Positions 2,491-55,983 of a stretch of DNA of 64,000 bases are shown piece after piece (the first letter of the stretch is position 1; each line of letters opens with the position of its first letter). The translations under genes and the position numbers were made by a program. Under the pieces are notes generated by a model. The model saw nothing but the letters and a program-made list of their open reading frames with translations, did no database searches and was not told the origin of the DNA. Origin of the DNA: a virus; the IMG/VR virus record IMGVR_UViG_3300020159_001521, positions 49,681-113,680 of that record, one strand, 5' to 3'.

Positions 2491-2515
2491 CTTGTTATAA
2501 AAAGGACAAAATGCT

Positions 2516-2523
2516 TATATTTG
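2516..2523 (+). promoter_or_regulatory. Bacteroidota-type -7 promoter element TATATTTG
   Basis: Matches TAnnTTTG in the gap after polB, about 19 nt before the ATG at 2542. Confidence 0.65.
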
Positions 2524-2541
2524 TTCTTTATAATACAAGTT

Positions 2542-2850
2542 ATGGAAAAAGTAAACAGAAAGAACCTTACAGAACATTTAGTTAGATATCAACTGGAAAT
2601 GGTTGGTAGGACATGGGAAGATGCTCTTGCTGATGAGCAATGGTATTATAACATCACCATGACAAAAGAACAATTCGATGAGTTCATGGTGTATGCGCTT
2701 CCTCTAGTTAAGAAAATACTGAAATGTAACAAGTCACGAGCTGAAAAAACATTAGCGTGGTTCAATTTACAATTTGGACTACGTATATACCCATGTCCTT
2801 TTGAGCTTAATTCAAAACCAATAAATGATGTTGATAAGACGGACAGTTAG
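2542..2850 (+). CDS. hypothetical protein
   Basis: ORF in the operon; ATG at 2542 preferred over TTG at 2521. Confidence 0.7.
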   Translation: MEKVNRKNLTEHLVRYQLEMVGRTWEDALADEQWYYNITMTKEQFDEFMVYALPLVKKILKCNKSRAEKTLAWFNLQFGLRIYPCPFELNSKPINDVDKTDS

Positions 2851-3196
2851 AAAGATTAAGAATATTGTAAGATGGATCCCAATTCTCTGGCATGATGAGG
2901 ATTGGGATTATTTTTACATCTATAATCTACTTCAGAACAAGTTGTTACATGTTAAGAAGCACATAGTAGAACAGAACAGTCATTTAGACAGCAAACATGT
3001 AGCATCTAGAATTCAGACAGCTATCGACCTGATAGACAAGGTTAAAACGGAATATTACATAGATGATTTTATTGAAAAAAGGGAAATAGGAAGTCTTAGA
3101 GATGAAGAGCTAATGAAAGCCTTCAGAAAGCATGACAAAGCTAAGAAAGTGTTATTTCAATTTTTAAGTCACAATCTCCACCACTGGTGGGAGTAA
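2825..3196 (+). CDS. hypothetical phage protein (WIPILWHDEDWDY motif)
   Basis: ORF tightly packed in the operon. Confidence 0.7.
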   Translation: MMLIRRTVRKIKNIVRWIPILWHDEDWDYFYIYNLLQNKLLHVKKHIVEQNSHLDSKHVASRIQTAIDLIDKVKTEYYIDDFIEKREIGSLRDEELMKAFRKHDKAKKVLFQFLSHNLHHWWE

Positions 3197-25142: not shown

Positions 25143-25445
25143 ATGAAGAATCAGTTTTTCTACACGAGGAGAGAAGTTTCTGGTGGTACACCTGAAGCTC
25201 CTGAGTACAGGACATTTACAGACAGCTTTAACATGGACAAGGTTATTAGGAGTATATCTCTTGAGGACGACAGAGTGCTTGTTCTCTTGGATGATTTGCA
25301 CGAAAGAGCCCAGCTTGTTCCTGATGTAGATCCTAAAACCAATAAGGTGAGAGGACAGAAGAGAGAAAGGAATGTTTATCAATCAGAAATCTATCTTGAA
25401 CAATCAGACGCAAAACGTTTCTATGAGCTTACTTCCATCAATTAG
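25143..25445 (+). CDS. conserved hypothetical protein
   Basis: 100-aa ORF with an A-rich leader. Confidence 0.7.
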   Translation: MKNQFFYTRREVSGGTPEAPEYRTFTDSFNMDKVIRSISLEDDRVLVLLDDLHERAQLVPDVDPKTNKVRGQKRERNVYQSEIYLEQSDAKRFYELTSIN

Positions 25446-26181
25446 TTGTAAATGCATCACTTACGGACGTGTAGACTTTCTGGAGGAATCTATTTATAGC
25501 TTCCTTCAGCAAGACTACCAAGGAGAAAGAGAACTTGTTATTGTAAATGACTATCCTTTACAGAAGCTTGTATTTGACCATCCTGATGTAAGAATCTACA
25601 ATCTTGATACAACCTTTCCTACAATAGGAGAAAAGGAAAACTTCATCCTTGAGAAATGTAGATTTGATGTAATAGCTGTTTGGGATGATGATGATGTGGC
25701 TATGCCTAATCACCTGAACAATATTGCTAAACACTTCGTTCCAGGATCAAATCTATTACATTGGCAAAAAGGAGTGCTGTTCAACGGTGACAACATTGAA
25801 GCTATTACATCATTGGGTAATTCTGGTATTGTATATAGTAGAGATGCTTGGGAAGCTGTAGGAAGACATCCTCTTGAGAATGCTGGATATGATATGACTC
25901 TAGTGGTTAGAATACATGAACTTGGACGAGATAAGGTTGTATTAGCATCTCCTGCTGATGAGGAAGTGAGCTGGTTCTATATGTGGGGAGGAAGAGGCTA
26001 TCACATGAGTGGTCTTGGTACAGACGATGATACACGTCCAAATGCTATACAAAGGCATTCTGCTCACGTAGAAAGACTCAGACAAATGGGACAGATTCCT
26101 ACAGGAGAAGTGAAGCTCATTCCCAATTGGACAAGGAATTATAAACAAATATTAAAAGAGTTCACTAATGCACATAAATAG
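25423..26181 (+). CDS. glycosyltransferase family 2-like
   Basis: ISC.CITYGR, SFLQQDY, ELVIVND, WDDDD (DXD) motifs. Confidence 0.85.
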   Translation: MSLLPSISCKCITYGRVDFLEESIYSFLQQDYQGERELVIVNDYPLQKLVFDHPDVRIYNLDTTFPTIGEKENFILEKCRFDVIAVWDDDDVAMPNHLNNIAKHFVPGSNLLHWQKGVLFNGDNIEAITSLGNSGIVYSRDAWEAVGRHPLENAGYDMTLVVRIHELGRDKVVLASPADEEVSWFYMWGGRGYHMSGLGTDDDTRPNAIQRHSAHVERLRQMGQIPTGEVKLIPNWTRNYKQILKEFTNAHK

Positions 26182-26824
26182 TATAGAAATTGATTCTACT
26201 AACTCTAGAACAGACTTATGTAATTTAGGAACACTCTATCCTACAGATAAATCTCCATACAATGAGAATTCTGGATTACATAAACATGCATACACTTCTA
26301 TATATAATCTTCTTTTCTCACACATAAGGTATAATGATGTGAAACTAGGAGAAGCTGGTATATTAGATAACATGTCTATGTTGTCTTGGAGAAACTACTT
26401 TCCAAATGCTAAGTTGTATGGCTATGAATGGTTTGATGATAGATTACATAAAGCTTTGGGAGATCGTTTACATAACAGTGTGTACATGAAAATGAACATA
26501 GAAGATGTAAACTCAATAGAAGAATGTTTACGTTCATCAGGAAGTGAGTTTGATATATTGATAGATGACTCAACACATGTATTTAAAGATCAAATCAACT
26601 TCATCAATGTTGCTTATAAACATTTAAAGCCTGGAGGCTTCTTGATTATTGAGGATATATTCATCTCTGAAAGTGAGAAACGATATGAAGATGCTATCGA
26701 TCATCTAAAAGAGTATTTCTCATCAGCTACATTTATATTTGCAAATCATGCTTTGAAATACTCTCCAGGATGGAACAATGATAAACTATTGGTATTAAAC
26801 AGAAACGATAAACCATGTTCTTAA
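26168..26824 (+). CDS. SAM-dependent methyltransferase (sugar O-methyltransferase-like)
   Basis: TDK...H.Y...Y, E.GI, W..YFPNA, FDILIDDSTH, LKPGG..IIED; pattern recalls MycE/ElmMI-type sugar methyltransferases. Confidence 0.8.
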   Translation: MHINSIEIDSTNSRTDLCNLGTLYPTDKSPYNENSGLHKHAYTSIYNLLFSHIRYNDVKLGEAGILDNMSMLSWRNYFPNAKLYGYEWFDDRLHKALGDRLHNSVYMKMNIEDVNSIEECLRSSGSEFDILIDDSTHVFKDQINFINVAYKHLKPGGFLIIEDIFISESEKRYEDAIDHLKEYFSSATFIFANHALKYSPGWNNDKLLVLNRNDKPCS

Positions 26825-27351
26825 ATATAATCACGCCCTGTTCAAGACCTAACAATCTAGAGGCCATCTCTAATAGTATCAACATTCCACCTGATCATTA
26901 CAGGTGGATTGTTGTTTTTGATTCTACAGAAATACCAGAAAACATCCCTCATAACTGTGAACCTTACGCAATAAAGGTGAATGGTAGTGTATTTGGTAAC
27001 GGTCAACGTAACTATGGAATAGATTTAGTTAAACACGGACATATCTATTTCAATGATGATGACACAACAATTGTACCTGTTCTTTGGGAAAATATAAAAG
27101 ATTTAACTGAACACTTCATATCATTCAGTCAAATTGAGAAGGATGGGAGGATGCGACTAATTGGGAAAACAGTAGGTGTAGGAGCAATAGATAGTCACAA
27201 CTTCATTGTATCTAAAGAAACAGTAGGTGACATAAGGTGGGAATTAGACAAGTATGATTCTGATGGATTCTTTGCATACGAGTGTTATAGAAAAGCAAAT
27301 AGCATAATTCATATACCTAAGGTGCTCTCTGTGTACAATTCATTAAAATGA
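26815..27351 (+). CDS. short GT-A fold glycosyltransferase
   Basis: IITPCSR, WIVVFD, RNYG, YFNDDDT motifs. Confidence 0.75.
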   Translation: MFLNIITPCSRPNNLEAISNSINIPPDHYRWIVVFDSTEIPENIPHNCEPYAIKVNGSVFGNGQRNYGIDLVKHGHIYFNDDDTTIVPVLWENIKDLTEHFISFSQIEKDGRMRLIGKTVGVGAIDSHNFIVSKETVGDIRWELDKYDSDGFFAYECYRKANSIIHIPKVLSVYNSLK

Positions 27352-27878: not shown

Positions 27879-28169
27879 TTAGCAATTCCATTTTCTCAAA
27901 GACTTATTGATTCTGCTATTTGGATCATTGGCAGTTTTGGCAGATGTCAGTTTCTTCTTCATTCCTGACATTCTACTACAAAATGATTTACGTCTTTTAG
28001 CAGATTTGCTTCCCTTCTTAAGCTTAGAAGGCTTTGTTGTAACAGCTGTCTTTAATTTACTGCCAGGATTAGCAGCTCTATAGCTTGCAACACCTTTAGC
28101 ATTGAGACCTCCAGATTCAGATTTTCCTTCTTTCCTGGTCCAGGCTTCTGATTTTTTAACTGTAGCCAT
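27879..28169 (-). CDS. basic phage protein (DUF6321-like)
   Basis: AWTRKEGK..GGLN..G, RRKSFCSRM, SLRKWNC motifs. Confidence 0.75.
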   Translation of the reverse strand: MATVKKSEAWTRKEGKSESGGLNAKGVASYRAANPGSKLKTAVTTKPSKLKKGSKSAKRRKSFCSRMSGMKKKLTSAKTANDPNSRINKSLRKWNC

Positions 28170-28359
28170 GTCTTCCAAAGGTTATATTGTTCTTTACAAT
28201 AATGTCTTTATGCCTGAACTGCCACATTTCACCAGTGGTATTTATAATCACTGTATATATTGTGTCAGATTCATGTCCGTAGTCTGTAACTAACCAAATG
28301 ATTCCATCACCTTTAGGTGTTGTCACCTCTACACGGTTGGATGGTTCGAATATTATCAC
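28156..28359 (-). CDS. hypothetical protein
   Basis: V.TPKG.G...DYG...TGEMW; packed between neighbours. Confidence 0.7.
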   Translation of the reverse strand: MIIFEPSNRVEVTTPKGDGIIWLVTDYGHESDTIYTVIINTTGEMWQFRHKDIIVKNNITFGRHGYS

Positions 28360-28538
28360 TTCTTCTTCATCTTCTTGAGAGTCTGAGCAAGGCGTGCTCT
28401 TTGACCCATTTTACCAGGCTTCTTAGCAGCAGCTGCAAGTTTACCAGCAGGGATCTTTTCTCCCTTTTTAACACCAAGAGATGAGCGTAGGGCACCAGGC
28501 TTCTTAATAGCCTTCTGTATCCATTTCTTGTCAGCCAT
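28356..28538 (-). CDS. small Lys-rich protein
   Basis: WIQKAIKKPGAL...RARLAQTLKK. Confidence 0.75.
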   Translation of the reverse strand: MADKKWIQKAIKKPGALRSSLGVKKGEKIPAGKLAAAAKKPGKMGQRARLAQTLKKMKKK

Positions 28539-28540
28539 GG

Positions 28541-28873
28541 TTATTTCTTTTTAGCAGACTTCTTAACTATCTTACCACCCTTCTTCATATTACCAAGAGT
28601 TCTTTCCTGAACCTTTGTCCAAGCTCCTTTAGGATCAACCATAGGGGCTTTAACCTTCTTACTAGCTACACCACCAGCTTGCATTTTGCTTGCAAGACCT
28701 TTTACAAAAGCCTTACCACGCTCTAAACGTGTATCTCTTTCAATCATTCTGTTAGCAACACGTTCTGCTCTTTCAGGATTCTTATCTGAGATTCTACCAA
28801 GTCTTTTATATTGACCTTTCCTCAAAGATGGTGTGGCACTAATGCCAACTTGAGCTTTCTTTGCCTTTGCCAT
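28541..28873 (-). CDS. Lys/Arg-rich protein
   Basis: MAKAKKAQVG start; MQAGG and MKKGG motifs. Confidence 0.7.
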   Translation of the reverse strand: MAKAKKAQVGISATPSLRKGQYKRLGRISDKNPERAERVANRMIERDTRLERGKAFVKGLASKMQAGGVASKKVKAPMVDPKGAWTKVQERTLGNMKKGGKIVKKSAKKK

Positions 28874-28875
28874 AG

Positions 28876-29274
28876 TTATTTCTTTTTACCTTTGTATTTA
28901 TAATCAGGATTGTCCTTGTGCCATTTCTTTGTAGAAGCAACGCCTTGTTTAACTGTCTTAGCTCTACCAATTTTTGTGAGGTTGATGGTGTCCCATTTAC
29001 CTTTGTCTTTGGTAGGATGGTTTACAATTATGTCTCCTTTGGTAGCTTTAGTACTATTTTTCTTAGATTTATAAACTACGTGCTTCTCACCACCAGCATT
29101 TACTGTCACCTTACCACCACTCTTTAATGTACTTCCTTTAAATGGTCCTTTCTTTTTAACAAGAGGACCATCAGGAACAGGAGTGATGTTACCACCACGT
29201 TTAAGAACTCCCTTACCAACATAAGCTTCTGCTTTCTGTGGATTGTACACTTTGGTTTTAGGAATTCTAGGCAT
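28876..29274 (-). CDS. Lys-rich protein
   Basis: LKRGG and LKSGG motifs; 2-nt spacing to neighbours. Confidence 0.7.
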   Translation of the reverse strand: MPRIPKTKVYNPQKAEAYVGKGVLKRGGNITPVPDGPLVKKKGPFKGSTLKSGGKVTVNAGGEKHVVYKSKKNSTKATKGDIIVNHPTKDKGKWDTINLTKIGRAKTVKQGVASTKKWHKDNPDYKYKGKKK

Positions 29275-29276
29275 GG

Positions 29277-29420
29277 TTATTTACCTTTAGCTTTAATCTT
29301 CTTTTCTTGCTTGAGCATTGCCGAATTTGGCTTCTTTCCACTTCCTTTATTGGCACGAATATTGTCCCACAAACCACGTTGTGAAACACTTCCATCTTTA
29401 CGTTTAATCATTTGTTTCAT
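29277..29420 (-). CDS. small Lys-rich protein (47 aa)
   Basis: Translated manually: MKQMIKRKDGSVSQRGLWDNIRANKGSGKKPNSAMLKQEKKIKAKGK. Confidence 0.7.
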   Translation of the reverse strand: MKQMIKRKDGSVSQRGLWDNIRANKGSGKKPNSAMLKQEKKIKAKGK

Positions 29421-30309: not shown

Positions 30310-30594
30310 TTAATTTAATTCTATTTCAAAAACAATTGTTGCAGAACTCTTAATCGACTTGCTCAAATTGAGCTTTATGTGTAAGAGATTGTGGAATTTT
30401 AATATCTCCTCTAGAAGCATATCGTTGTACATGGGTACAGATGGTGCTAATCTGAAATGCAGAGAATTAGGATTTCTTGTCACTTCCAATGTACACAGCT
30501 CATCAACTGATTCAATTATTCCCTCTAGATGTGCCAGATAAGCTATTTCATTATCTGGCAACACCTTAGGAAAGAATCTTGTGTTAATTTGCAT
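30310..30594 (-). CDS. hypothetical protein
   Basis: TAATG coupling with the ferritin-like gene. Confidence 0.65.
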   Translation of the reverse strand: MQINTRFFPKVLPDNEIAYLAHLEGIIESVDELCTLEVTRNPNSLHFRLAPSVPMYNDMLLEEILKFHNLLHIKLNLSKSIKSSATIVFEIELN

Positions 30595-31007
30595 TAGCTC
30601 AGTGTTAGCAGATACTTTGTTTTAGCAGCTTCGCCAGATAGTGCATCAGCCAGATTTGCTATATCGTGATAGGAATTACCTTCAGCATAGCTCTTTAAAC
30701 TAGATGAAAAGCTAAGAAGTTCACTAACAACAGCATCTGGTGTAGAGCTTGTCAATTGTTCCATCTTAACTGTTCCAGGTCTTTTTCCTGTATATCCCAT
30801 AAGCTTCTCTATAACACCATCTTTAAAATCATGTACATAATCGTACAATCCTCCAAGAGCTTGATGCGTAGCGTAGCTGCTTGTCTGCCAATGCAATAAG
30901 TGTAGCTGCTCATGAAAATACGTAAGCTTGCTAGCAATTGCTTCCAGAGACATTTCTTGAGGAGAAGACTTAATCATCTCCTCAGGAAAAAGTGATTTTA
31001 ATGCCAT
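30594..31007 (-). CDS. ferritin/Dps-like four-helix protein
   Basis: LHLLHWQT.SYA.H.ALG.LYD...D..IE..MG...YLLTL pattern. Confidence 0.75.
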   Translation of the reverse strand: MALKSLFPEEMIKSSPQEMSLEAIASKLTYFHEQLHLLHWQTSSYATHQALGGLYDYVHDFKDGVIEKLMGYTGKRPGTVKMEQLTSSTPDAVVSELLSFSSSLKSYAEGNSYHDIANLADALSGEAAKTKYLLTLS

Positions 31008-31031: not shown

Positions 31032-31427
31032 CTAAGCCTTCAAGATGTTGTCATACTTAACTCTCAAATAACCAATGTTGTGGTCAAACACTACAAAACT
31101 AGGATTGAGTTCCATTGCTTGTTGAGCAAGTACACCTTTTGTAGGATTGTTAGCAACACCAAGAGATACAGCTTTAGCATTCCATTCCCAAGTGTATTCA
31201 GGAAGGCTTCCTATAAAGTTACCTGTAGCTCTAATGTTTCTTTTCAGACGGATATCTGATACAGTGGTAGTTGTAGTGGTGGTAGGAGCACAGCACTCAT
31301 ATGCTTGTATCTCAATCCATTTACCCACCTTAGGCATCTTCTTCCTGAGAATAAGGCTCCCAGGCACCACTCGCCCAGAACCATCAAAGCGTACATACGC
31401 TTTCAAATCTTTACGATTGTTTCCCAT
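31032..31427 (-). CDS. small poly-Thr protein fused to a peptidase S74 (intramolecular chaperone) domain
   Basis: CCAP-T7-V followed by SDIRLKRNI...Y.W.WN...GVLAQ...GYLRV.Y. Confidence 0.75.
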   Translation of the reverse strand: MGNNRKDLKAYVRFDGSGRVVPGSLILRKKMPKVGKWIEIQAYECCAPTTTTTTTVSDIRLKRNIRATGNFIGSLPEYTWEWNAKAVSLGVANNPTKGVLAQQAMELNPSFVVFDHNIGYLRVKYDNILKA

Positions 31428-31445
31428 TTTACTTAATTTTTGCTT

Positions 31446-32465
31446 TTAATAATTGAAATTGTATTTCTGTTTGACATCAAACATTCGTGTTACGTAGTAG
31501 TGATTACAAAGTGTTTTACTGAGTTCACTATTCAGCACTTCCTCTAGATGAGGATCTTGGAAAGGGTTTTTTCCTGAATGATAGAGTCCTTTGTAGAATG
31601 TTGGAATTGCTCCTTGGTTATTAGCTACAATGCCTGCATTGTGTAATATACCCACCCTATCTAGTTTCTCTATTCCATCTGAACTCCATGCGAATTCCAT
31701 TTCAGGAATCACTCTTGTTTCTTTCTCTCTGAGCCACAGATTCCAAAGCACAGCCCACATATCAGCACACCAACTCTGGAACCCTTTGTTCTCATTCTCA
31801 AAGAACTGTCTATTTACGTTCATTAAATATGACCTAATCATCAGACAATGACTTGTCACATTATCCCAAAACCCTGCATCTATGTTCTTAAGGAGATATT
31901 GTGCTCCTCCAGAATGTAGATTGTTCTTTTCACATATCTCTCTTGTTATTCCAACTAAACTTGTGGTTTCAGAGAGAATATCTGTTTTCTCGTAGTCTTC
32001 CAGTTTTTCAGGAAGAACATCTTTTATCTTACTATCAAAATATGATGCACTTATGTAACTGTTTGTATCAGACAGATAACAAATATCATCATCTATATAA
32101 GCGTCTATGTTAAATCTTTCTGTGAATACGATGTCACAATCGCAATAGAAGATTGCCTTATTCACCATCTCTGGATGTTCTTTGAAGTATTTCATCAAAG
32201 TGTAAGGACGTAATACAGGAATGTAGAGGCTAAATGTTTTGCTTATACCATCTACATCTTTGTAATATGCAAATTCAGATTCTGGATAGAGAGCTTCCAG
32301 GTCTTTCCATTTCTCATTGAAGTCTCTGAAGTTTGGTGTGAAGACAAGAACAATAGCCTTGTCACTCTTACCAATCATCTTTAAACTCTCAAGCCATGTG
32401 TGCACTTGCCAAACGTAGTAATCATCATCTGGCTGTACGCAGACGAATTTAAGATCCTTTGCCAT
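31446..32465 (-). CDS. GT-A glycosyltransferase resembling plant protein O-glycosyltransferases (GT95/GT96-like)
   Basis: Y..WQ, LRPY.L..YF, YCDCDIVF (DXD), GGAQYL, W.ADMWA, ILHNAG motifs. Confidence 0.6.
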   Translation of the reverse strand: MAKDLKFVCVQPDDDYYVWQVHTWLESLKMIGKSDKAIVLVFTPNFRDFNEKWKDLEALYPESEFAYYKDVDGISKTFSLYIPVLRPYTLMKYFKEHPEMVNKAIFYCDCDIVFTERFNIDAYIDDDICYLSDTNSYISASYFDSKIKDVLPEKLEDYEKTDILSETTSLVGITREICEKNNLHSGGAQYLLKNIDAGFWDNVTSHCLMIRSYLMNVNRQFFENENKGFQSWCADMWAVLWNLWLREKETRVIPEMEFAWSSDGIEKLDRVGILHNAGIVANNQGAIPTFYKGLYHSGKNPFQDPHLEEVLNSELSKTLCNHYYVTRMFDVKQKYNFNY

Positions 32466-32492
32466 ATGTAATTTTGGTTTATTGTTTCCTTA

Positions 32493-32633
32493 TTAAGGAG
32501 CCACAGTTGTAGTGGTGGTAGTAGTGGTAGCAGGTCCTGCTGTTATTTGAATCAGTCTTTCTAACTTCTTAGAAATCTGCCAAAGCAAATTAGACTCGTT
32601 GCTCCAACCAATTTGTTTATTAGGAACTGCCAT
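32493..32633 (-). CDS. 46-aa poly-Thr peptide sharing its N-terminus with fibre protein 38118..39587
   Basis: Translated manually: MAVPNKQIGWSNESNLLWQISKKLERLIQITAGPA-T8-VAP. Confidence 0.8.
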   Translation of the reverse strand: MAVPNKQIGWSNESNLLWQISKKLERLIQITAGPATTTTTTTTVAP

Positions 32634-32668
32634 AATTAAAAGTTTTAACGAAGAGAAGAGGGAGGCTA

Positions 32669-32842
32669 TTAAGCCTCTCCTCCTTTGTCTTCTTCTTTGA
32701 GAATTTTCTCACTAACGGTGTTAAAAGCTGTGATAGCTGCAAGTGAGTCGTTTAAGGATTTAAACAGTCCTTTTTCACTTGCGAGGTCAAGAATCATTTT
32801 GATCACCTCAAGAGCTTGCTTTTCTGTCATTTGTGGATTCAT
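32669..32842 (-). CDS. small hypothetical protein (57 aa)
   Basis: Translated manually: MNPQMTEKQALEVIKMILDLASEKGLF...; preceded by TATATTTG. Confidence 0.65.
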   Translation of the reverse strand: MNPQMTEKQALEVIKMILDLASEKGLFKSLNDSLAAITAFNTVSEKILKEEDKGGEA

Positions 32843-32867: not shown

Positions 32868-32875
32868 CAAATATA
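32868..32875 (-). promoter_or_regulatory. -7 promoter element TATATTTG
   Basis: CAAATATA on the + strand, intergenic, upstream of the 32842-29723 gene run. Confidence 0.65.
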
Positions 32876-38117: not shown

Positions 38118-39587
38118 TTATACAGTTATGTCTCCAAATAAATACCACTCATCTGTTCCTATCTTCACAAGAGAAGCACCGCTATATTGAGCAGCGAGTT
38201 TAAGAGCTCCAAGAGCACTTCTCACAGTTACACCTGCTCCTGGAACAATTGATGTTTGTCCTGCTCCATATTGAGCTATGTCTATTTTTGTTCCTATTGG
38301 GAATGTTATTGAGCTGTTTGGTGGAACAGTGAGAGTGTTTGCTGCTCCAACGTTTGTTTCAACCAACTTACCTCTATCAGCCAAAGCAAGTGTATATGAT
38401 GCAGTTTGTCTGTTTGTAGTGATGGTTTCTCGCAACACTCCATTTATTAACAATCCACCACCTAGAAAATTATCAGCTGTACCTTGTCCATATAATCCCC
38501 AGCCTGTGTTATTAGACCATTCAATACTCCTCCAATCTGCTGCAGCGGTCAATGTAGGTTGAACATATAAACCTCTTGTTATACCATTTGCCCCTCCTGC
38601 TTGATTAATAGTAGGATTAAGCAATGCCAAAATTGTAGTAGCGTTTCCACTTGTAGGAGCAAAAGTTTCAGTTCCCTGTATAACTATATTACCACCACTT
38701 GTTCTTACAACATTTGCACTATGGTTTGCAAGTAATACATTCGTTGCATTAAAATATGTTTGTAAAGTGATTACATTACTACTCGCCCAATTTGCTTCTA
38801 ATAAAATATTTTGATTTTGTTGTGCCCTTAAAGTATTTGAGTTAAGAGTAGGAGTTGTTAATGAACTTCTTGAAAATGCATCACCATTATTAGATATTTG
38901 AAATTGGGTAACTCCACCTAAATTTCTGGTAATAAAATGTAATGTATTTAAATTATCTGTTCCTGTAATATTTAAAATATCAGTAAAAAGACTTGTTCCA
39001 TTAACCTGCAATCTCTGACCACCGTCTAAGAATGTACCTCCGTTTTGAAGAACTACATTTCTTGTAATACCGAACATAGTCATTCCTACTGTGTCATTTG
39101 TACCGAATGTTAATGGTGCAGTTGTTCCTGTTAAGAATGTAAGACCGTTTACAAGTGATGAACTTGACCGAAACCTTGCTTGATTAGCTGATAATGTACT
39201 GTGATTTGAGCCGAATACTTGTAATGATAAACCTCCTACATTGCTTAATATAAGTATATCTGAGATAGCACTTGTTCCTGTCGATGGATTACTTATAAGC
39301 ATTCTTACAGTTCCATCAACTGTTTTTACTATACTTAAATCATTTGAAGGCGTATTAGTCCCAATCCCCAACCTCCCTTGAGCATTATCCCAAAACAGAT
39401 TATTAGATCCTGTAATGTTTGTAGCAGCATTCCAGAATGTCACTTGACCATTTGCACCACCACCTGTAATAGTGCCACCACCACCACCACCGCCTGAAGC
39501 AGCTGTTACAGCAGCGAGTCTATCAAGTTGCATTGATATATTGTATAGGAGATTAGATTCCTGACTCCAACCTATTTGTCTTGGCAT
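38118..39587 (-). CDS. fibre/adaptor protein
   Basis: GRLGIGT repeats; C-terminal QTASYTL..AD...FPIGT...QYGAG...W.LFGD module. Confidence 0.75.
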   Translation of the reverse strand: MPRQIGWSQESNLLYNISMQLDRLAAVTAASGGGGGGGTITGGGANGQVTFWNAATNITGSNNLFWDNAQGRLGIGTNTPSNDLSIVKTVDGTVRMLISNPSTGTSAISDILILSNVGGLSLQVFGSNHSTLSANQARFRSSSSLVNGLTFLTGTTAPLTFGTNDTVGMTMFGITRNVVLQNGGTFLDGGQRLQVNGTSLFTDILNITGTDNLNTLHFITRNLGGVTQFQISNNGDAFSRSSLTTPTLNSNTLRAQQNQNILLEANWASSNVITLQTYFNATNVLLANHSANVVRTSGGNIVIQGTETFAPTSGNATTILALLNPTINQAGGANGITRGLYVQPTLTAAADWRSIEWSNNTGWGLYGQGTADNFLGGGLLINGVLRETITTNRQTASYTLALADRGKLVETNVGAANTLTVPPNSSITFPIGTKIDIAQYGAGQTSIVPGAGVTVRSALGALKLAAQYSGASLVKIGTDEWYLFGDITV

Positions 39588-49626: not shown

Positions 49627-52600
49627 TCACCTACCGCTTTCTTTCTGTATAGTTACATCAAACTCTCTAGCAAAATCTTCATTGAATATAGCAAGATAGG
49701 TTACCAAAGATTTAGTTACAGGAGCCACCTTCATCAGATTCTTAATTGGCTGAGCTTTTTTTCTAACATCCTCTATAGATGTTTGGGGATCTAGATCCAT
49801 GCCTGTAGTTTCCATGGCAAAGTGTTTAGTGAACCTACCAATGTCCTCAGTAAGACCTAGTGCTGGAAATATTCCACCACTTAAGGTTCCAGATATGCCA
49901 CTTGGGGTGTAGAAGAATAGAAGTTCATCAGCAAACTTACCAAACACCTTTTGAGAATATCTGTGAAAGTTTTTAGTTGCTTTATCCTCATCATCATCAG
50001 GAGCAACAAATCCTAGAGAAAGCAACACACCCATAAGAGAAACCAGTATAGCAAGTTCCTTCACCTGATTCCTAAGATTGGTTCTAATGAGATCAATGAA
50101 ATCTTCTCTGGACATATTTAACTTTTCTCCAGTTTCAAGTTCATATTTTTCTCTAAACTCTTCAAACATCTGATCAAGTCTTTCCAAACCAGCATCATTT
50201 AGATAAAGTATATTTTTTAGATTGGCTGCACCTGTAATTATACCATCACCTAACACATGGGTTAGAAGCCTAATTCTACCAATATCATATTTCTGACCTT
50301 CAATAGATCCATCGTCTGTAACTCTTACAGAGAAATCATCTACCACTTTTCTAAACTCTCCAAATCTTGTATCAATAAGTTTAGGAATCCAGTTTTTGAA
50401 CACCATCATGGACTTTGTCCATACAGACATTGACATTCTATTGATATTCTCTTTAGTCATTGAACCTGTAGCATTTGCTGCCATACGTCTGGACAGGTTT
50501 GTAAGACGTTGAAGTTCTTCTATATTATTTAAATCAAGTCCAGGTATTTCAAGTTTTCCATCAACAAGTTTCTTTGTCTTATCTATAGATTTTGTTTTTT
50601 TGAGCTCCTCTATTTCATTTTCAATATCATCTTTTACAGCATTATAACTTGCCGCTGAGTCATATCTGCTTTTATACTTATTCCTCACATACTCTCTGAT
50701 ATTTACAATCTGACCATTTACTACCATGGAGTTTTGCAACAAGGTTAGGAATACAGACTTTTCAATCAGTATTTCAGGCTGTCTCATAAAGAACATCAAT
50801 GTATCACTTAGATTTCCCTGAGTGAGTTTTGACATACCTGCTTGTTTGTACATTTCATAAGAAGGATCATCTTTTAGAGGCATGAAGGTGTTTATAAGTT
50901 GTACAAACATTTCTTTGTCCTCATTATTATCAAATCTCTGAAATGTAAGTTTTGCCTCATTTTTGGCAAACTCCCTAGCTTTAAAATAGTTTCCTGCTTG
51001 GGTACTTAACTGAATGTTACCACCAAACATATTTACAGCTCCAGATATAAACTCAAATCCCAAGGTTTTTAGTTGGAACGCCCTATTAGCAGCATCTATT
51101 GTTTTAATCAGTGAACTTGGTTTAGGATCTTCATCTTTTTTCCAAATCTCTTTACCAGCCACTTTGTTAACACCATCTTTAACAAAGTTTAACACCTTTC
51201 CAATATTAAATGGTAAATCAGAATCATCAATTACATATTTCTGATCATACAACATTACTCTCAAGAAGTCATCATATATTTTTGTATTACGTTCATTACC
51301 CTCAATTTCTTTAGGTTTTCCATTTTCATAAACAACATTACCAATTCTGTCAGTATTGAGATGGCTCTTGAATTCTTCAATTGTTTTAACAAGTTTAAGT
51401 TGACCCTCAACATCTGTTAAGTATTTATACTTATTAACTTGTTGAATATACAATATAAGATTTTTAAACAAATCTTCACTTACATCAGAATAATCATTCA
51501 CTCCATCCTTAAATGTAAAGTCTTTTGTGTAGTATTTAGGGATACTGTTCTCAAGGGCACCAGTAACTTCATTAAATTCCCCATATCCTGTATCATCAGG
51601 ATTGAGTTGTATACTCTTATAAAAATTGTCCATAACAGACAATCTATTATCCCAAACTAGCTCTTCAGCCATAGACTTCCTTACAAAAGGAAGGAATATC
51701 TTTGACATCTGATTACTTATGTATCCAGTATCTTCAGCCTTATTGTTAAACTTTACAATAAAGTTATAAAGCTCCATCAGTTCAGGATCTTTCTGAAGAT
51801 TTTTATATTCTTCAGAATACCATTTTGCAAGAGGGTGTCTTTTTATGATATGGTTTTTCCATCCATCAAAGTCAATCCTATCTATATCCCACTTACGTTT
51901 AGCCTCTTCTATAAGCCTTTCTCTTGTAGCCTTTTCTTCTTCTGGTGTACCTGCATACCTATTTCCTTGTATCTTCTTTATTTGATCCTTCAGCTTTTCT
52001 TCAGCCTCTTTCTTATATGCTTCAACATCAATATTTTGTAAAATCCAGTTTTTATCTCCACCATCTTCAGCTTTTTCATCCACTTCACTAAAGAATTCTC
52101 TTTTGTATTTATATATCAGTTTGTTTACAATCTTACCCTTGTCATCTTTCTGATACACTTGTTGAACAAGTTTTCTAAGATCTCCTCCTCTTTTAGCAAG
52201 CTTCTCTCTAATAGACATAAGTTGACCTACTTCACTTAATGCATTCTTGGCAGCTAAACTTTGAGCATTATTTACAAGTTTTGTAAGAATCTCTACAGAT
52301 CTAAGTGATATATCTGCAGCACCTCTAAACATAGAGGCCAATCCTTTTAATACCTTTTCTGGTTTAAGAAGTCCGAAGGTTAAGTTTCTTTCACCAATAT
52401 GCTTGTCAGCAAATGCCATGGAGGCTTTATTGATTGCCTCTCTAGAATCATAAATAGCATCAGATTCTTCTCTTAGTTTTCTTAAAACTTCCTTTCTTTG
52501 AGCAACATTAGCTTTTTCTTCCTCTGTAGTGGCTTCAGCTTCCATTTGAGGAGTGTATACAAGCGTTCCTATTTTTCTACCAATGTTTACAAATATGTCA

Positions 52601-55600
52601 GAAAGCTTGATATAGTTATTCATGTCATCTGCAAAATCAGATAATTCATCATTCTTAGAATCACTAGATCTAGCAGATCTGTTCTTGTATATTGTATTAT
52701 AATCCTCAAGAATCCTATCGCCCTCTTTTCTCATCACCTCAATCACATCAATAAGAGGAGCAATGTTCATTGTTGTTTGGGCCAAACGAATTGCTTTTCT
52801 AAGTGTGTTCAAACGCTCTATCTTAAACTCACGCTCTTCTTCATCCCCTACCTCCTCTTTACCAATCTGAGCAAGAAGACCGTTCATCTTTCTAAGAATC
52901 TCATCCAATGCTTCAAATCCTGTGGATTCTGTTTCTTCAGATATAGGAACTAGTCTCAGGTCTTCAATCTTGCTAACATCCACTGAACCAATAGCTATAC
53001 CTCCAAGGTATGAGCCAGACTTAGGATCTCTGGGATTTTTGAGTTTAAACTCCATAGCTATTGGAATAGCTCTTGTCATTCCAAACTCTTTAATGCCATA
53101 GTTCTCACGAAGCATCTTCTTGTATGTACCAAGCTGAATGTTAAATGCTCCCTGCTTGAACCACGCAACATCATCTCCCTTAATATGCATAAACTTCCAG
53201 TCAAGGATGTGTGCTTTACCTGAAGGTTCAATAGCAAGAAAGTCTATAGTACCAGCTTCTTTATTTTTCTTGTCATAAACAATCACCTCGGAAAGAACAA
53301 TTGTTTTTGGATCAAGTGTATCTAGAAGATCTGTAAAATACTTTTCAAGCTTGTCATACATTTCCTCAGACAGATTACTGAACTTAGTAGGTCTTGGTTC
53401 TGGAGAAGTTCTTCTTGTTCCATCCTTATGGAAATATCTAGCATGTATATTTTCTAAATCTTTATGTCCTTGTATACCAAGATCTCTCTTTAGCTCATTA
53501 AACTTCTTCTCTTCAGGAGTGAATTGTTTGTCACCAAACTTACGCTTATACCAAGCCTTCACCCTATCTGTAACCCTCTTCTCAATTGTTTCAAAGGTAC
53601 CATCTGGTTTCTTTCTTCTGTAATAGTTACGTGCTTCTTCTGAATCAAGTAATACAGGTTCTACCTTAGTCTCATCTTCCACCACCTTTTCAATTTCATC
53701 CTGTGTAGCAAAAATCTTTTCTTGTATAGTTTTTTGATTATCAGAGAGTTGAAACATTAAACCACCTTCTGTTATGTCAGCAACTGTACCAATCTCACCA
53801 GCAACAATCTGAGCAGCAGCTTCTTCAAACAGGGAGATGTTAGATTTTCTATATATTCCTCTAATCCAATCAAGGATGGTATTCCACCAGCTTCTTATAA
53901 GAGATTGATTAATCTCCTCTCTCAGTTCTGGGTATTGTTCAATGTTCTCATTATCATTAATAATCACCTCAGCAATAAGCTTATCAACGGCTTCCATCTT
54001 AATCTTACGAATGTCTGGCTTACCATTAGGAAGTTGATAGTTCTTATTGTTCTTATACTTATCAAGTGTTTCTTTATAGATTTTAAACCTATCAATCTTG
54101 CTTATCATTTCTGTGACAAGCTTAGGATTGGTTTGCTGTAAGATTGATCTAGCTATGTGAACCAGCTCCTCTGTAAGAGCCACTCCCTCTTTTCCTTCAG
54201 CTAGAGCAATCACACCTCTGGTAAGATCTGCCAAACCATTAACACCCTTAGTGTCCATATCTGGATTACCTTTGGCATAGTCTGCAAGTTCCTGAATATC
54301 AACACCCATTTTCCTAGCAGCCTCTTTCACCTTGTTCAAGGTTTCTGTAGAAGCTTTAGACATAGGCATTTCTTCTTTCTGAAGAAGAACAGATTGCTGT
54401 TCTCTTTCAGAAACTATCTCCACCTCATTCCACGTATTACCATATTCATCTGTAACCTGCTTAGGAGCATATCCCTGCTTCTTAAGAACATTGGCTACAG
54501 TTGTTTCATAGAAGTTGTAGATGGGTTTAAGAGCACCAAACCCTTCTGTCTCAACTCTTTCAAGTTCTTGTTCTAAAGCTTTCTTTTCAATTAAGTTATT
54601 TTGGTAAATATTTAATTCATCTTCTGTAAGATTTATTTTAATTTCATAAGTAGGATTACCTTTATCATCTATCCATTTTTGAGCTTCCTCTTTTGTTTTA
54701 AATTCTGTAGAGATATAAGTTCCTGTTTTTGTGTTTTCTATCCTAACAGTATATCTTAAATCTCTAATATCATATAATTCTCTTTGTTCTATTTTAAAGT
54801 TTTCTTTAACTTCACCTTTGGTAAGTTGTTCATTTATTTGTTTTAATCTAGCTTCTTTCTGTTTCTTAAACTCTTCTAATGTTGAATGACCTTCTATCTT
54901 ACTGGCTGTATTACCAGAAGGGAATAACACTTTCTCATATCCTTTCTTAGCAGAGTCTTGTATAATAGATTTAACAAAGAATGTCACCCAGTTAGATCCT
55001 TGGTTTAATAGTTGAAGAAATTGATTTTCTTTTGATGTAGGATTTAACCAAACATCAGCTTCTTCTTGTGTTTTAAATCCAGACTCTATAATACCTACTT
55101 GTGTATTTACAACTGCCCATGTACCATCTGATTGTTTTTCTATCTTATCAGTACTATTGTCTGGTTTTTTAGAAATTAAATCTTTTCTATCTCTGCCTTT
55201 CTGAAATAAATCAGATTGTACTTCTAGTATTCTACGAGTTTTAGGTTCTTCTTTTAATACTGCATCTTCAATTCCCCATTCTGAAGGGGCTTCTTTATTC
55301 TCAGCAAAACCTTCTACTATTGGAGCCTTATCATCACTTCTAAACCAACCAATACCTTTATCTGTAGCAAACTGAGCATGACCTTTAATAGATGGGGTGA
55401 TAGCTGGTGTAGCTATTTCATTCTCTGTATAATTAGTTCCTCCTGGAACTGTTAAATTAGCATAGTATTGAGATGGTTTTTCAACATAAACTTCTCCTTT
55501 TGATTCTAAATAATTTTTTACAAAATCTTCAAATTCTTTTGTACCATATTTTAAACCAGCAGCTCTAGCTTCACCAATAGCTTTCCCTTGATTTTTACCA

Positions 55601-55983
55601 ACATTGCCACCTTCTGTACTTAAATTAATCTCAACAGCAAAGCTATAGTCAGCTAACATATTGGTAATCAACTGTTCTCTGTCTGTAGTGTTGTATTGCT
55701 TGAGAAGCTCTACTTGTTCTTTAGGAATACCAAGATCAGCCTGCATCTTCTTCCAGAAGAAATCACCAGATATTTTATTCTTAATTACGCTGTTAAAGAA
55801 TTGATCTGCTTTAGGAGATTGCAAGATGCTTGTAGCTTTTAATCCAGATTTTACAATGGATTCCCTACTTTCACTCTCAGGAACATTACCATCATACTTA
55901 TCCCACAAGGCGTATGCCACATCTTCACCTCTAGCAGTTACAAGATTTTTCCAAGAATCAAGATTTATGTTAGGACATGCCAT
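49627..55983 (-). CDS. giant virion cargo/ejection protein (2118 aa) with a PD-(D/E)xK nuclease-like domain
   Basis: Adjacent to the virion RNAP; AGTIDFL......HILDWK motif, degenerate zincin-like EELVH, EVQSD-containing N-terminal domain. Confidence 0.75.
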   Translation of the reverse strand: MACPNINLDSWKNLVTARGEDVAYALWDKYDGNVPESESRESIVKSGLKATSILQSPKADQFFNSVIKNKISGDFFWKKMQADLGIPKEQVELLKQYNTTDREQLITNMLADYSFAVEINLSTEGGNVGKNQGKAIGEARAAGLKYGTKEFEDFVKNYLESKGEVYVEKPSQYYANLTVPGGTNYTENEIATPAITPSIKGHAQFATDKGIGWFRSDDKAPIVEGFAENKEAPSEWGIEDAVLKEEPKTRRILEVQSDLFQKGRDRKDLISKKPDNSTDKIEKQSDGTWAVVNTQVGIIESGFKTQEEADVWLNPTSKENQFLQLLNQGSNWVTFFVKSIIQDSAKKGYEKVLFPSGNTASKIEGHSTLEEFKKQKEARLKQINEQLTKGEVKENFKIEQRELYDIRDLRYTVRIENTKTGTYISTEFKTKEEAQKWIDDKGNPTYEIKINLTEDELNIYQNNLIEKKALEQELERVETEGFGALKPIYNFYETTVANVLKKQGYAPKQVTDEYGNTWNEVEIVSEREQQSVLLQKEEMPMSKASTETLNKVKEAARKMGVDIQELADYAKGNPDMDTKGVNGLADLTRGVIALAEGKEGVALTEELVHIARSILQQTNPKLVTEMISKIDRFKIYKETLDKYKNNKNYQLPNGKPDIRKIKMEAVDKLIAEVIINDNENIEQYPELREEINQSLIRSWWNTILDWIRGIYRKSNISLFEEAAAQIVAGEIGTVADITEGGLMFQLSDNQKTIQEKIFATQDEIEKVVEDETKVEPVLLDSEEARNYYRRKKPDGTFETIEKRVTDRVKAWYKRKFGDKQFTPEEKKFNELKRDLGIQGHKDLENIHARYFHKDGTRRTSPEPRPTKFSNLSEEMYDKLEKYFTDLLDTLDPKTIVLSEVIVYDKKNKEAGTIDFLAIEPSGKAHILDWKFMHIKGDDVAWFKQGAFNIQLGTYKKMLRENYGIKEFGMTRAIPIAMEFKLKNPRDPKSGSYLGGIAIGSVDVSKIEDLRLVPISEETESTGFEALDEILRKMNGLLAQIGKEEVGDEEEREFKIERLNTLRKAIRLAQTTMNIAPLIDVIEVMRKEGDRILEDYNTIYKNRSARSSDSKNDELSDFADDMNNYIKLSDIFVNIGRKIGTLVYTPQMEAEATTEEEKANVAQRKEVLRKLREESDAIYDSREAINKASMAFADKHIGERNLTFGLLKPEKVLKGLASMFRGAADISLRSVEILTKLVNNAQSLAAKNALSEVGQLMSIREKLAKRGGDLRKLVQQVYQKDDKGKIVNKLIYKYKREFFSEVDEKAEDGGDKNWILQNIDVEAYKKEAEEKLKDQIKKIQGNRYAGTPEEEKATRERLIEEAKRKWDIDRIDFDGWKNHIIKRHPLAKWYSEEYKNLQKDPELMELYNFIVKFNNKAEDTGYISNQMSKIFLPFVRKSMAEELVWDNRLSVMDNFYKSIQLNPDDTGYGEFNEVTGALENSIPKYYTKDFTFKDGVNDYSDVSEDLFKNLILYIQQVNKYKYLTDVEGQLKLVKTIEEFKSHLNTDRIGNVVYENGKPKEIEGNERNTKIYDDFLRVMLYDQKYVIDDSDLPFNIGKVLNFVKDGVNKVAGKEIWKKDEDPKPSSLIKTIDAANRAFQLKTLGFEFISGAVNMFGGNIQLSTQAGNYFKAREFAKNEAKLTFQRFDNNEDKEMFVQLINTFMPLKDDPSYEMYKQAGMSKLTQGNLSDTLMFFMRQPEILIEKSVFLTLLQNSMVVNGQIVNIREYVRNKYKSRYDSAASYNAVKDDIENEIEELKKTKSIDKTKKLVDGKLEIPGLDLNNIEELQRLTNLSRRMAANATGSMTKENINRMSMSVWTKSMMVFKNWIPKLIDTRFGEFRKVVDDFSVRVTDDGSIEGQKYDIGRIRLLTHVLGDGIITGAANLKNILYLNDAGLERLDQMFEEFREKYELETGEKLNMSREDFIDLIRTNLRNQVKELAILVSLMGVLLSLGFVAPDDDEDKATKNFHRYSQKVFGKFADELLFFYTPSGISGTLSGGIFPALGLTEDIGRFTKHFAMETTGMDLDPQTSIEDVRKKAQPIKNLMKVAPVTKSLVTYLAIFNEDFAREFDVTIQKESGR

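Follow-up and report, generated by a model that had tools for sequence, protein, structure and literature searches.

The phage that carries this locus very probably makes sugar-coated, mucin-like peptides, since the pairing of its glycosyltransferase-like enzyme with poly-Thr sequences recurs in phages of three phyla. In the explanation we favor, and consider likely, a 339-aa enzyme glycosylates the poly-Thr microproteins encoded beside it and the mucin-like products are docked on the virion; both the glycosylation and the display we infer. The phage is uncultured and its genome (113,680 bp, ∼114 kb) is complete; the stretch analysed here, referred to as the window, covers 64,000 nucleotides of it. 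When 24 kb of the window was compared with the phage collection by megablast, no match was returned. The host probably belongs to the phylum Bacteroidota, as indicated by an enriched −7 promoter element and by the related loci.

Organization of the Locus

Three adjacent, co-oriented genes on the minus strand, verified at 32493–32633, 31446–32465, and 31032–31427, encode a 46-aa peptide with a T8 tract, a 339-aa enzyme with a DCD motif, and a protein in which T7 precedes an S74 domain, exactly as originally predicted. The neighborhood consists of tail and fiber genes, and the enzyme gene lies in a late structural operon, with the replication module on the opposite strand. The original prediction had also placed the three genes downstream of TATATTTG. 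The element, a Bacteroidota-type −7 promoter motif, is indeed present at 32868..32875 (minus strand), but a 57-aa ORF (32669..32842, minus strand) and a hairpin intervene, so that the element is followed first by another gene. The ORF, which starts ∼26 nt from the element and is the first gene past it, has no significant family match and its function is unassigned; a 60-aa homolog occupies the same position in one relative (L006). The GC-rich hairpin (32662..32677, minus strand; 6-bp stem, 4-nt loop, and pyrimidine-rich tail) is terminator- or attenuator-like and separates the 57-aa ORF from the 46-aa gene. In the window, TATATTTG occurs 13 times against 5.3 expected, a count reached in 0 of 100 shuffles, and comparison with the ORF table showed at least six other copies 8–47 nt upstream of same-strand ORF starts. 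A promoter-like TTGTCA-17-TATATT is present at 32898–32870. The bipartite Bacteroidota promoter pattern TTG-N19-TAnnTTTG was not enriched; enrichment was confined to the −7 element.

Predicted Fold and Family of the 339-aa Enzyme

The AF2 model of the 339-aa protein (31446..32465, minus strand; pLDDT 97.1, pTM 0.94) shows a compact, globular protein that begins with a beta strand at residue 5 and has no membrane segment. VIA-align placed it closest to glycogenin (Z 14.0), Skp1 Gat1 (13.9), UGGT (13.6), LgtC (13.6), and GlyE (13.0), with Z values of 12.7–14.0 against the GT8 members 1zcu, 6mw8, 1g9r, 5gvv, and 3tzt, and Foldseek concurred (E ∼1e-6 to glycogenin and WbbM). The DxD motif of the enzyme is D109-C110-D111, and in the aligned sequences of 72 homologs (30–98% identity) D109, D111, H275, and K292 showed no variation. 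The predicted GT-A fold with a DxD motif was thus borne out by a high-confidence model with GT8-type structural matches. Judged from the model, the protein is a metal-dependent, soluble, GT8-like GT-A glycosyltransferase, and its mechanism is probably retaining.

Sequence searches gave the family little by way of a name. The protein matches phrog_4417, a PHROG without a name (E 1.5e-50), and belongs to a family of 2166 homologs, none of the best 120 of which carries a Pfam domain. Pfam assigned no family to the protein itself at E up to 1 and no significant family to the 72 relatives and 10 cultured-phage homologs; Glyco_transf_8 (PF01501) was matched neither by the protein nor anywhere else in the genome. 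A PDB sequence search, with the single protein or with the 72-sequence profile, returned nothing useful.

The proposed likeness to plant hydroxyproline arabinosyltransferases (HPAT, GT95) gained no significant support from Pfam. The Pfam HPAT family (PF23452) matched neither the window enzyme nor the 10 cultured-phage homologs, the nearest solved folds are GT8-type, and GT95 or GT96 structures were absent from the fold-search matches listed. HPAT was matched by one of the 72 relatives (E 0.013) and by 10% of the members of an ESM Atlas language-model neighbor cluster; both are leads only. HPAT (GT95) and the peptidyl-serine galactosyltransferase SGT1 (GT96) are plant enzymes that glycosylate hydroxy-amino-acid-rich repeats, but they are membrane-bound in the Golgi or ER and have Hyp or Ser as their acceptors, whereas the window enzyme is modeled as soluble rather than membrane-anchored and is paired with tracts of Thr, not Pro/Hyp. 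Reviews describe HPAT/GT95 as GT8-related (PMC4082320, PMC4908140), which makes a resemblance of the window enzyme plausible but indirect.

It had further been expected that the best structural matches would tell a protein-glycosylating enzyme from one acting on lipopolysaccharide (LPS) or DNA. At the top of the matches, however, protein-glycosylating enzymes (glycogenin, Skp1 Gat1, UGGT, and GlyE) were tied with the LPS enzymes LgtC and WbbM, and with such a tie the acceptor is not named by the fold alone. The third possibility, that the enzyme glycosylates phage DNA bases and adjoins Thr tracts by coincidence, is very improbable: phages do encode DNA glycosyltransferases, and this genome has a large nucleotide-metabolism module, but DNA glycosyltransferases are absent from the 90 fold matches listed, the gene belongs to the late structural operon, whose strand is opposite to that of the replication module, and the coupling to poly-Thr across phyla would be left unexplained.

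Threonine Tracts and the 46-aa Microprotein

Candidate acceptor 1, the 46-aa microprotein (32493..32633, minus strand), consists of an N-terminal module A (consensus QIGWS..SNLLWQISK..E.L) and the ending GPA-T8-VAP. Its T8 tract (32505..32528, minus strand) is encoded by ACC ACT ACT ACC ACC ACT ACA ACT and lies 39 nt upstream of the enzyme start; the T7 tract of the 131-aa protein (31263..31283, minus strand) lies 162 nt downstream of the enzyme stop codon. The mixing of ACC, ACT, and ACA codons reported earlier was seen in both tracts. Across the whole 113,680-bp genome, read in six frames, only four runs of at least five Thr were found, the two longest of which flank the enzyme gene, and the arrangement thus exceeds chance.

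Of the 80 related loci, 65 retained the 46-aa ORF, with a tract upstream of the enzyme gene. The N-terminus of the microprotein is 68% identical over 22 aa (E 1e-9) to that of a 489-aa fiber-like virion protein (38118..39587, minus strand; PHROG “virion structural protein” and “minor tail protein”), in which module A is followed by a G7 linker where the microprotein has poly-Thr. The conservation and the N-terminal match together indicate a real gene family. Among relatives, module A occurred in 108 distinct proteins of 42–996 aa and was directly followed by poly-Thr in 49 of them (median length 52 aa). Thr-run lengths showed a sharp mode at T7 (170 of 283 runs), and in 94 of 138 proteins no more than 5 aa separated the final tract from the C-terminus. 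The mixed codons, the T7 mode, and the C-terminal position suggest, at the level of sequence, that the tracts are under protein-level selection.

The 131-aa Protein and Its S74 Domain

The 131-aa protein (31032..31427, minus strand), candidate acceptor 2, has module B at residues 1–48 (ending YECC), T7 at 49–55, and a C-terminal S74 domain at 57–131, the tract reading CCAP-T7-V before the domain. The Peptidase_S74 domain (31035..31259, minus strand), a predicted self-cleaving intramolecular chaperone, matched Pfam PF13884 (E 8.2e-7); the score of 29.7 bits exceeds the cut-off of 22, and the match pairs residues 57–112 with model positions 1–57 of 58. Across 20 homologs, V56, S57, D58, R60, L61, K62, N64, and I65 were invariant (motif VSD.RLK.NI), and by analogy with endosialidase we take S57/K62 to be the catalytic dyad. 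The likeness to the S74 domains of endosialidase tailspikes and tail fibers extends to the Ser and Lys five residues apart and the C-terminal position; the passenger, however, is a 56-residue segment (a small beta module plus T7) and not a long triple-beta-helix fiber. In known tail fibers and spikes, S74 promotes trimer folding and then removes itself by cleavage.

The architecture of module B, a T-rich linker, and S74 was found in 41 of 120 homologue clusters among the matches listed. In the AF2 model both flanking domains are folded and linker residues 44–52 have pLDDT below 50; a three-copy complex prediction scored 0.02, which speaks neither for nor against a trimer. A Foldseek search with the monomer model had no matches at an E value of 0.001 or lower and yielded no recognized fold for module B, the only suggestive rows being those of the MyRF intramolecular-chaperone domain (probability 0.35).

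Coupling of the Enzyme to Poly-Thr Across Phages

The survey of co-occurrence that the original prediction proposed showed enzyme homologs nearly always beside poly-Thr ORFs. In a clade comparison of 80 related viral loci, in which runs of at least six Thr were counted and those within 1.2 kb of the enzyme gene were taken as near, 75 loci had a near run. Run density was 1.35 per kb near the gene vs. 0.033 per kb beyond, a ∼40-fold difference, and no run of at least six was found on the opposite strand near the gene in the 80 loci. The enzyme was present with no such run nearby in the other five, at least one of which has a Thr-rich, non-homopolymeric ORF. Among cultured phages of Enterococcus, Lactococcus, Lactobacillus, Clostridium, Staphylococcus, Arcanobacterium, and Chryseobacterium, 10 of 12 sampled loci showed the pairing, mostly with capsid or tail-tube C-termini; examples are phiFL1A (capsid and tail tube), phage 1706, bIL285, VPE25, phiCTP1, and Chryseobacterium MA9V-3. 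The other two, SAC12B and LP65, had no tract within 3 kb of the enzyme gene. On a 5.18-Mb Chitinophagaceae contig, the gene before an enzyme homolog encodes a 1044-aa protein that contains T13 and T20 runs. The coupling thus spans phages of Bacteroidota, Bacillota, and Actinomycetota.

The sole syntenic relative found without the enzyme gene (a 70.5-kb record, 61% complete) has no poly-Thr; it keeps the module A and module B proteins, with a linker that is poly-Pro or absent. A supposed second enzyme-minus locus, L124, proved to be a flank-size artefact, the gene lying farther along the same contig.

These data bear on a reading in which the poly-Thr tracts are unmodified flexible linkers or tails and the enzyme, which merely shares a variable fiber locus with them, acts on a target such as a host envelope glycan, in receptor masking or superinfection exclusion. 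Poly-Gly and poly-Pro fill the same linker position in paralogs and relatives, so that a spacer role is real, and the LPS enzymes LgtC and WbbM are among the best fold matches. We nevertheless hold this reading to be unlikely, as the coupling persists in unrelated genome architectures and in three host phyla, and elsewhere the enzyme gene is wedged among capsid or tail genes and not in a fiber locus. The far greater tract density beside the gene, the replacement of poly-Thr by poly-Pro in the enzyme-less relative, the lack of a membrane segment in the enzyme model, and the occurrence of most tracts as terminal tails rather than inter-domain linkers speak against it as well.

Candidate Accessory Sugar Genes and Domain Fusions

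In homologs, the GT8-like domain is fused to GT2, GT6, GT32-like, GT60-like, O-FucT, and methyltransferase domains, and relatives carry additional GT32-like, GT2, and GT31 genes at the same locus, which fits a glycan-building pathway. In the window, a GT2-family glycosyltransferase (25372..26181, plus strand) is a candidate second-step enzyme, with a weaker association: it aligned over 261 columns (E 1e-12) with the GT2 portion of a naturally fused protein that includes the GT8-like domain, and the GT2 gene is present in three of four complete relatives possessing the GT8-like gene. Overlapping its end is a methyltransferase gene (26168..26824, plus strand; PHROG methyltransferase, E 4.7e-12), a possible but weakly indicated sugar methylase. 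Its Pfam match was below the cut-off, and its comparison with the methyltransferase domains fused to the glycosyltransferase family was not significant (E 0.025 and 0.63).

Comparison With Known Glycosylation Systems

A search of the literature found no published description of the enzyme family or of poly-Thr tags on phage proteins. Experimental demonstration of sugar-coated phage particles is, to our knowledge, limited to actinobacteriophages, whose sugar coat reportedly alters antibody recognition. Phage glycosyltransferases of Che8 and other actinobacteriophages are described as modifying the phages' own structural proteins (PMC12582341, PMC13313380, citing Freeman et al. 2023, Cell Host Microbe 31:1216), and the Che8 system resembles the one proposed here in that phage-encoded enzymes do this in the cytoplasm, ahead of phage release. 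The enzymes are of a different family, as Che8 gp108, gp109, and gp110 gave hhalign probabilities of 0.9%, 0.2%, and 0.1% against the 72-sequence enzyme profile, and Mycobacterium phages were absent from the 77 tblastn matches of the window enzyme. In Che8, poly-Thr is absent from the capsid and tail-tube proteins, whose last residues are ...TGS and ...DGS, and the enzyme genes are far from the structural genes, whereas the window enzyme adjoins its candidate acceptors.

The phrog_4417 homologs in Enterococcus, Lactococcus, Lactobacillus, Clostridium, Staphylococcus, and Arcanobacterium phages share 23–30% identity over at least 78% of the length. Their tags are on major capsid or tail-tube subunits; those of the window phage are on dedicated 46-aa and 131-aa microproteins, which differ further by their fiber-type N-terminal modules and, in one of them, by the S74 chaperone. 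The GT8-type protein-acting enzymes (glycogenin, Gat1 6mw8, GlyE 5gvv, and UGGT of GT24) align with the window enzyme at Z 13–14 over 212–245 residues and share with it the DxD motif, the downstream His and Lys, and solubility; their acceptors are proteins or glycoproteins. GlyE takes part in the glycosylation of the pneumococcal serine-rich-repeat protein, an adhesin, and several top matches glycosylate their protein acceptors within the cytoplasm. The window protein, however, is only 8–11% identical to these enzymes, is ∼80 residues longer, and lacks a Pfam GT8 match. Chlorovirus PBCV-1 A64R (2p6w) is likewise a viral GT-A enzyme that glycosylates a virion protein, but its Z of 10.6 is below the GT8 group, the virus is eukaryotic, and no poly-Thr tag is present. 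The glycans of PBCV-1 are N-linked and atypical.

Proposed Mechanism and Its Significance

Late in infection, the 339-aa enzyme would move a sugar from a nucleotide-sugar to the Thr hydroxyls of the runs encoded by its neighbors. The acceptors would be the two microproteins, each made of a small N-terminal module that heads long fibers in this lineage followed by 7–8 Thr. Were S74 to cut ahead of Ser57, the remaining 56 residues would end in T7-V and resemble the 46-aa protein with its T8-VAP ending; the Thr run would then lie near the C-terminus. The products would probably be short anchored stalks with a dense, mucin-like sugar brush, docking on the virion where fibers with the same modules dock, and the brush could serve in shielding, stiffening, or adhesion. 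We infer Thr as the acceptor, the S74 cleavage, the virion location, and the role of the brush; virion display is suggested by the fiber-type N-terminal modules and the tail-fiber gene neighborhood. The capsid and tail genes of the window phage are without Thr tracts, and a whole-particle “shield” is therefore unlikely here.

Glycosylated microproteins that are not virion parts, acting in the infected cell or after lysis, are about as improbable as unmodified linkers, if marginally less so. Such products could cap fiber-docking sites during assembly, serve as decoys for host defenses or proteases, or be soluble glycopeptides at lysis. In keeping with this, the acceptors are tiny, at 46 aa and, by prediction, 56 aa, and lack a distal domain, and the capsid and tail genes of the window phage bear no tracts. 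Modules A and B, however, also head long fiber-like proteins of the same lineage, the S74 domain is typical of virion fibers, and the tracts of Firmicutes phages are carried by the major capsid and tail-tube subunits, certain components of the virion.

Display on the virion being the preferred reading, a more general scheme may be put forward tentatively, as one we find possible but doubtful. Phages would share a portable O-glycosylation “tag plus enzyme,” in which ∼7 Thr, usually C-terminal, suffice for the GT8-like enzyme, the T7 preference reflecting the enzyme's measuring of its substrate. In the window phage, the tag would have shifted from capsid and tail subunits to fiber-anchored microproteins as glyco-whiskers, and S74 would assemble the trimer, cleave, and expose the glycosylated tail.

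If the favored explanation is true, virion glycosylation would be widespread, given a family of more than 2000 homologs coupled to a poly-Thr tag in three phyla. The enzyme and its tag may offer a compact pair for cytoplasmic O-glycosylation of recombinant proteins. Such a system would bear on phage stability, on adhesion to polysaccharide-rich surfaces, and on how therapeutic phages are recognized by the immune system; the same enzyme family is encoded by Enterococcus phages, VPE25 among them. The microprotein acceptors, together with the S74-processed form, would represent a new way to mount glycans on the phage particle.

Organization of the locus

The record is a complete genome of 113,680 bp with direct terminal repeats, of which the window forms the right-hand 64 kb; the GC content is 36.7%. 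Five successive genes on the minus strand, separated by gaps of 18-35 nt, were found in the order 57-aa ORF (32669-32842), 46-aa ORF (32493-32633), 339-aa ORF (31446-32465), 131-aa ORF (31032-31427) and a gene for a Dps/ferritin-like DUF5856 protein (30594-31007; PHROG label 'starvation-inducible transcriptional regulator'). A hairpin is located after the 57-aa ORF, and in almost every relative the DUF5856 gene likewise comes right after those of the candidate acceptors. The 46-aa protein ends in GPA-T8-VAP, the 339-aa protein contains D109-C110-D111, and the 131-aa protein carries CCAP-T7-V immediately ahead of a Peptidase_S74 domain (Pfam E 8.2e-7, above cut-off). Only four runs of at least five Thr were detected in six frames of the whole genome, the longest two flanking the 339-aa gene. 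The three-gene arrangement with poly-Thr on either side of the enzyme gene, described in the original prediction, is real, and the mixed codon usage it had noted (ACC, ACT and ACA) was recovered in both tracts.

A TATATTTG element (32868-32875, minus strand) lies ∼26 nt ahead of the 57-aa ORF. The window contains 13 copies against 5.3 expected (2.4-fold enrichment), and comparison with the ORF table showed at least seven of the 13 to precede the start of an ORF on their own strand by 8-47 nt, in keeping with a putative Bacteroidota-type -7 promoter element. The TTG half lying upstream in the bipartite consensus showed no enrichment in the window. From the TATATTTG enrichment, the closest cultured relative (Chryseobacterium phage MA9V-3) and genome-collection matches confined to Sediminibacterium, Cytophagales, Saprospiraceae and Chitinophagaceae assemblies, we infer a Bacteroidota host.

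Downstream of the enzyme locus, a series of small, highly lysine-rich proteins of 47-132 aa, many ending in KKK, is encoded at 27879-29420 (minus strand) and kept in relatives; these may be virion proteins that lie inside the particle or associate with DNA. The giant minus-strand ORFs at 49627-55983 (2118 aa) and 55987-63996 (∼2669 aa) gave no PHROG match.

Association of the enzyme with poly-Thr tracts

Same-strand Thr runs of at least six residues were counted in 80 related IMG/VR loci of 62-98% identity. Up to 1.2 kb from the enzyme gene their density was 1.35 per kb; farther away it was 0.033 per kb, and the opposite strand of these loci contained none. A tract was present upstream of the enzyme gene in 65 of 80 loci, downstream in 62 of 79 and on at least one side in 75 of 80. 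When loci were drawn via an independent marker gene (94-aa ORF at 30310-30594), enzyme and tracts were both present in 57 of 59 and both absent in two, one of which was a flank artefact. In the other relative, whose 70.5-kb record was judged 61% complete and has no enzyme homologue anywhere, the neighbouring protein families are kept, but their linker is poly-Pro or missing and poly-Thr is absent; this is a single case.

The enzyme family was detected by tblastn in 77 cultured-phage records, and adjoining genes ended in poly-Thr in 10 of the 12 loci inspected. In Enterococcus phage phiFL1A these were the genes for the capsid-region protein and for the major tail protein; in Lactococcus phage 1706, those for the capsid/protease and major structural proteins; and in bIL285, VPE25, phiCTP1 and Arcanobacterium phage TPWB06, tail protein genes. 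Staphylococcus phage PT94 showed a T14 run and Chryseobacterium phage MA9V-3 two Thr-rich proteins; no tract was found within 3 kb of the enzyme homologue in phages SAC12B and LP65. The co-occurrence that the original prediction proposed to survey is seen among the related loci and, well outside this clade, among cultured-phage homologues. The core reading, an enzyme with its putative substrates encoded next door, is well supported by this gene content and position.

A homologue with 35% identity to the enzyme is also encoded on a Chitinophagaceae contig of 5.18 Mb. At this MAG locus (L176:850-5002), the gene for a 1044-aa protein containing T13 and T20 runs is followed after 16 nt by that for the 333-aa homologue and then by one for a 771-aa protein. 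Neither flanking protein had a Pfam match, and the locus is probably a prophage or bacterial copy of the enzyme/poly-Thr system.

In several relatives, ORFs of ∼195-250 aa that by eye resemble homing endonucleases abut the glycosyltransferase gene (L008:3399-4001, L017:3406-3999, L032:3406-3999, L068:3411-4004, L005:873-1460 and 2451-3194). Four of the abutting ORFs start with M(K/R)DLKFIC, nearly equal to the enzyme N-terminus MAKDLKFVC, which suggests an insertion that copied the start of the enzyme gene.

Modular architecture of the candidate acceptors

In this phage the candidate acceptors are not capsid or tail-tube proteins; two small modules, A and B, form their N-terminal parts. Module A, spanning approximately residues 5-30 in the 46-aa protein, recurs at the head of a 489-aa fibre-like protein (38118-39587, minus strand; 68% identity over 22 aa, E 1e-9). 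The PHROG matches of this longer protein are to virion proteins and minor tail proteins, and a G7 linker in it occupies the position of the microprotein T8. In the enzyme-minus relative, the linker after module A is P7 within GPAPGPPPPPPPA (L096:3207-3848). Module B covers residues 1-48 in the 131-aa protein and ends in YECC; in relatives it stands at the N-terminus of proteins ranging from 58 to ∼1300 aa. Among the fetched loci, poly-Thr directly followed module A in 49 of 108 distinct proteins (median length 52 aa) and module B in 68 of 133 (median 80 aa). The final tract lay within five residues of the C-terminus in 94 of 138 poly-Thr proteins, the usual endings being AAP, ATP, VAP and EPR.

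Near the enzyme gene in the IMG/VR relatives L005-L168, 170 of 283 Thr runs were seven residues long, with 40, 21, 43, 8 and 1 runs of length 5, 6, 8, 9 and 10, respectively. Tandem units such as T7-AAP or T7-VAP are repeated two to four times in relatives. Owing to this sharp peak and the recurring units, run length looks constrained rather than freely slipping.

Of the 120 homologue clusters listed, 41 combine module B, a T-rich linker and S74. Residues V56, S57, D58, R60, L61, K62, N64 and I65 of the 131-aa protein are invariant in homologues, and Ser57/Lys62 are presumably a cleavage pair acting before Ser57, by likeness to endosialidase-type chaperones. Such a cut would release a 56-residue product ending in T7-V, resembling the 46-aa microprotein. 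The monomer model shows a disordered Thr linker between two folded domains.

The sole other in-gene run of at least five Thr in the genome, PTTTTTSTTT, lies ∼60 residues from the C-terminus of a protein of 1554 aa that PHROG labels 'virion structural protein' (E 3e-107). This protein, encoded outside the window (locus L171, G000:C1:15468-20132), is a possible third acceptor.

Fold and family of the enzyme

The 339-aa protein had no Pfam match and no PDB sequence relative, either as a single sequence or as a 72-sequence profile, and matched phrog_4417 (E 1.5e-50), annotated 'unknown function'. A 5.8-billion-protein collection contained 2166 homologues, the best 120 of which carried no Pfam domain; the family comprises 755 cluster representatives at 50% identity. 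The AlphaFold2 model built on the 72-sequence alignment (pLDDT 97.1, pTM 0.94) is a compact soluble domain beginning at residue 5. Foldseek and VIA-align 2 placed it among GT-A glycosyltransferases, closest to GT8-type retaining enzymes and their kin: glycogenin (Z 14.0), Skp1 alpha-galactosyltransferase (6mw8, 13.9), the UGGT catalytic domain (13.6), LgtC (13.6), WbbM (13.2), LARGE1 (13.1) and GlyE of serine-rich-repeat adhesin glycosylation (13.0). D109, D111, H275 and K292 are invariant in the alignment and fit the DxD...H...K pattern of GT8 enzymes.

The GT95/GT96 label originally given to the enzyme was not confirmed, the Pfam HPAT model giving no match; HPAT on 10% of the members of one language-model neighbour cluster is a lead only. 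Since two reviews describe HPAT/GT95 as GT8-related (PMC4082320, PMC4908140), a GT95 resemblance is compatible with the GT8-like result, though indirect.

Possible glycan pathway and comparison with known phage glycosylation

Natural fusions join the enzyme domain to methyltransferases and to domains of the GT2, GT6, GT32-like, GT60-like and O-fucosyltransferase types, and in relatives the locus contains additional GT32-like, GT2 and GT31 genes, 2-3 kb downstream. In this phage, a GT2 gene (25372-26181, plus strand) followed by a methyltransferase lies 5 kb from the enzyme locus; it aligns with the GT2 part of one fusion (261 columns, E 1e-12) and was found in three of four complete relatives. 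The fusions, extra genes and alignment suggest that an oligosaccharide may be built in some phages, a weaker tie than the main enzyme/poly-Thr coupling. The GT2, overlapping methyltransferase and a 178-aa unknown ORF (25372-27351, plus strand) lie last in the replication module on the plus strand, which converges with the structural operon.

In actinobacteriophages, virion proteins are reported to be glycosylated by enzymes that the phage encodes (Freeman et al., 2023, as cited in PMC12582341 and PMC13313380). Che8 gp108-110 are not homologous to the enzyme family at profile level, and the Che8 capsid and tail-tube proteins lack poly-Thr. Literature searches turned up neither an account of the enzyme family nor one of poly-Thr tagging in phage proteins. 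Phage self-glycosylation is known; what would be added here, judging from sequence, is an undescribed enzyme family and tag, to which this lineage would add an equally undescribed mode of mounting by a microprotein and S74.
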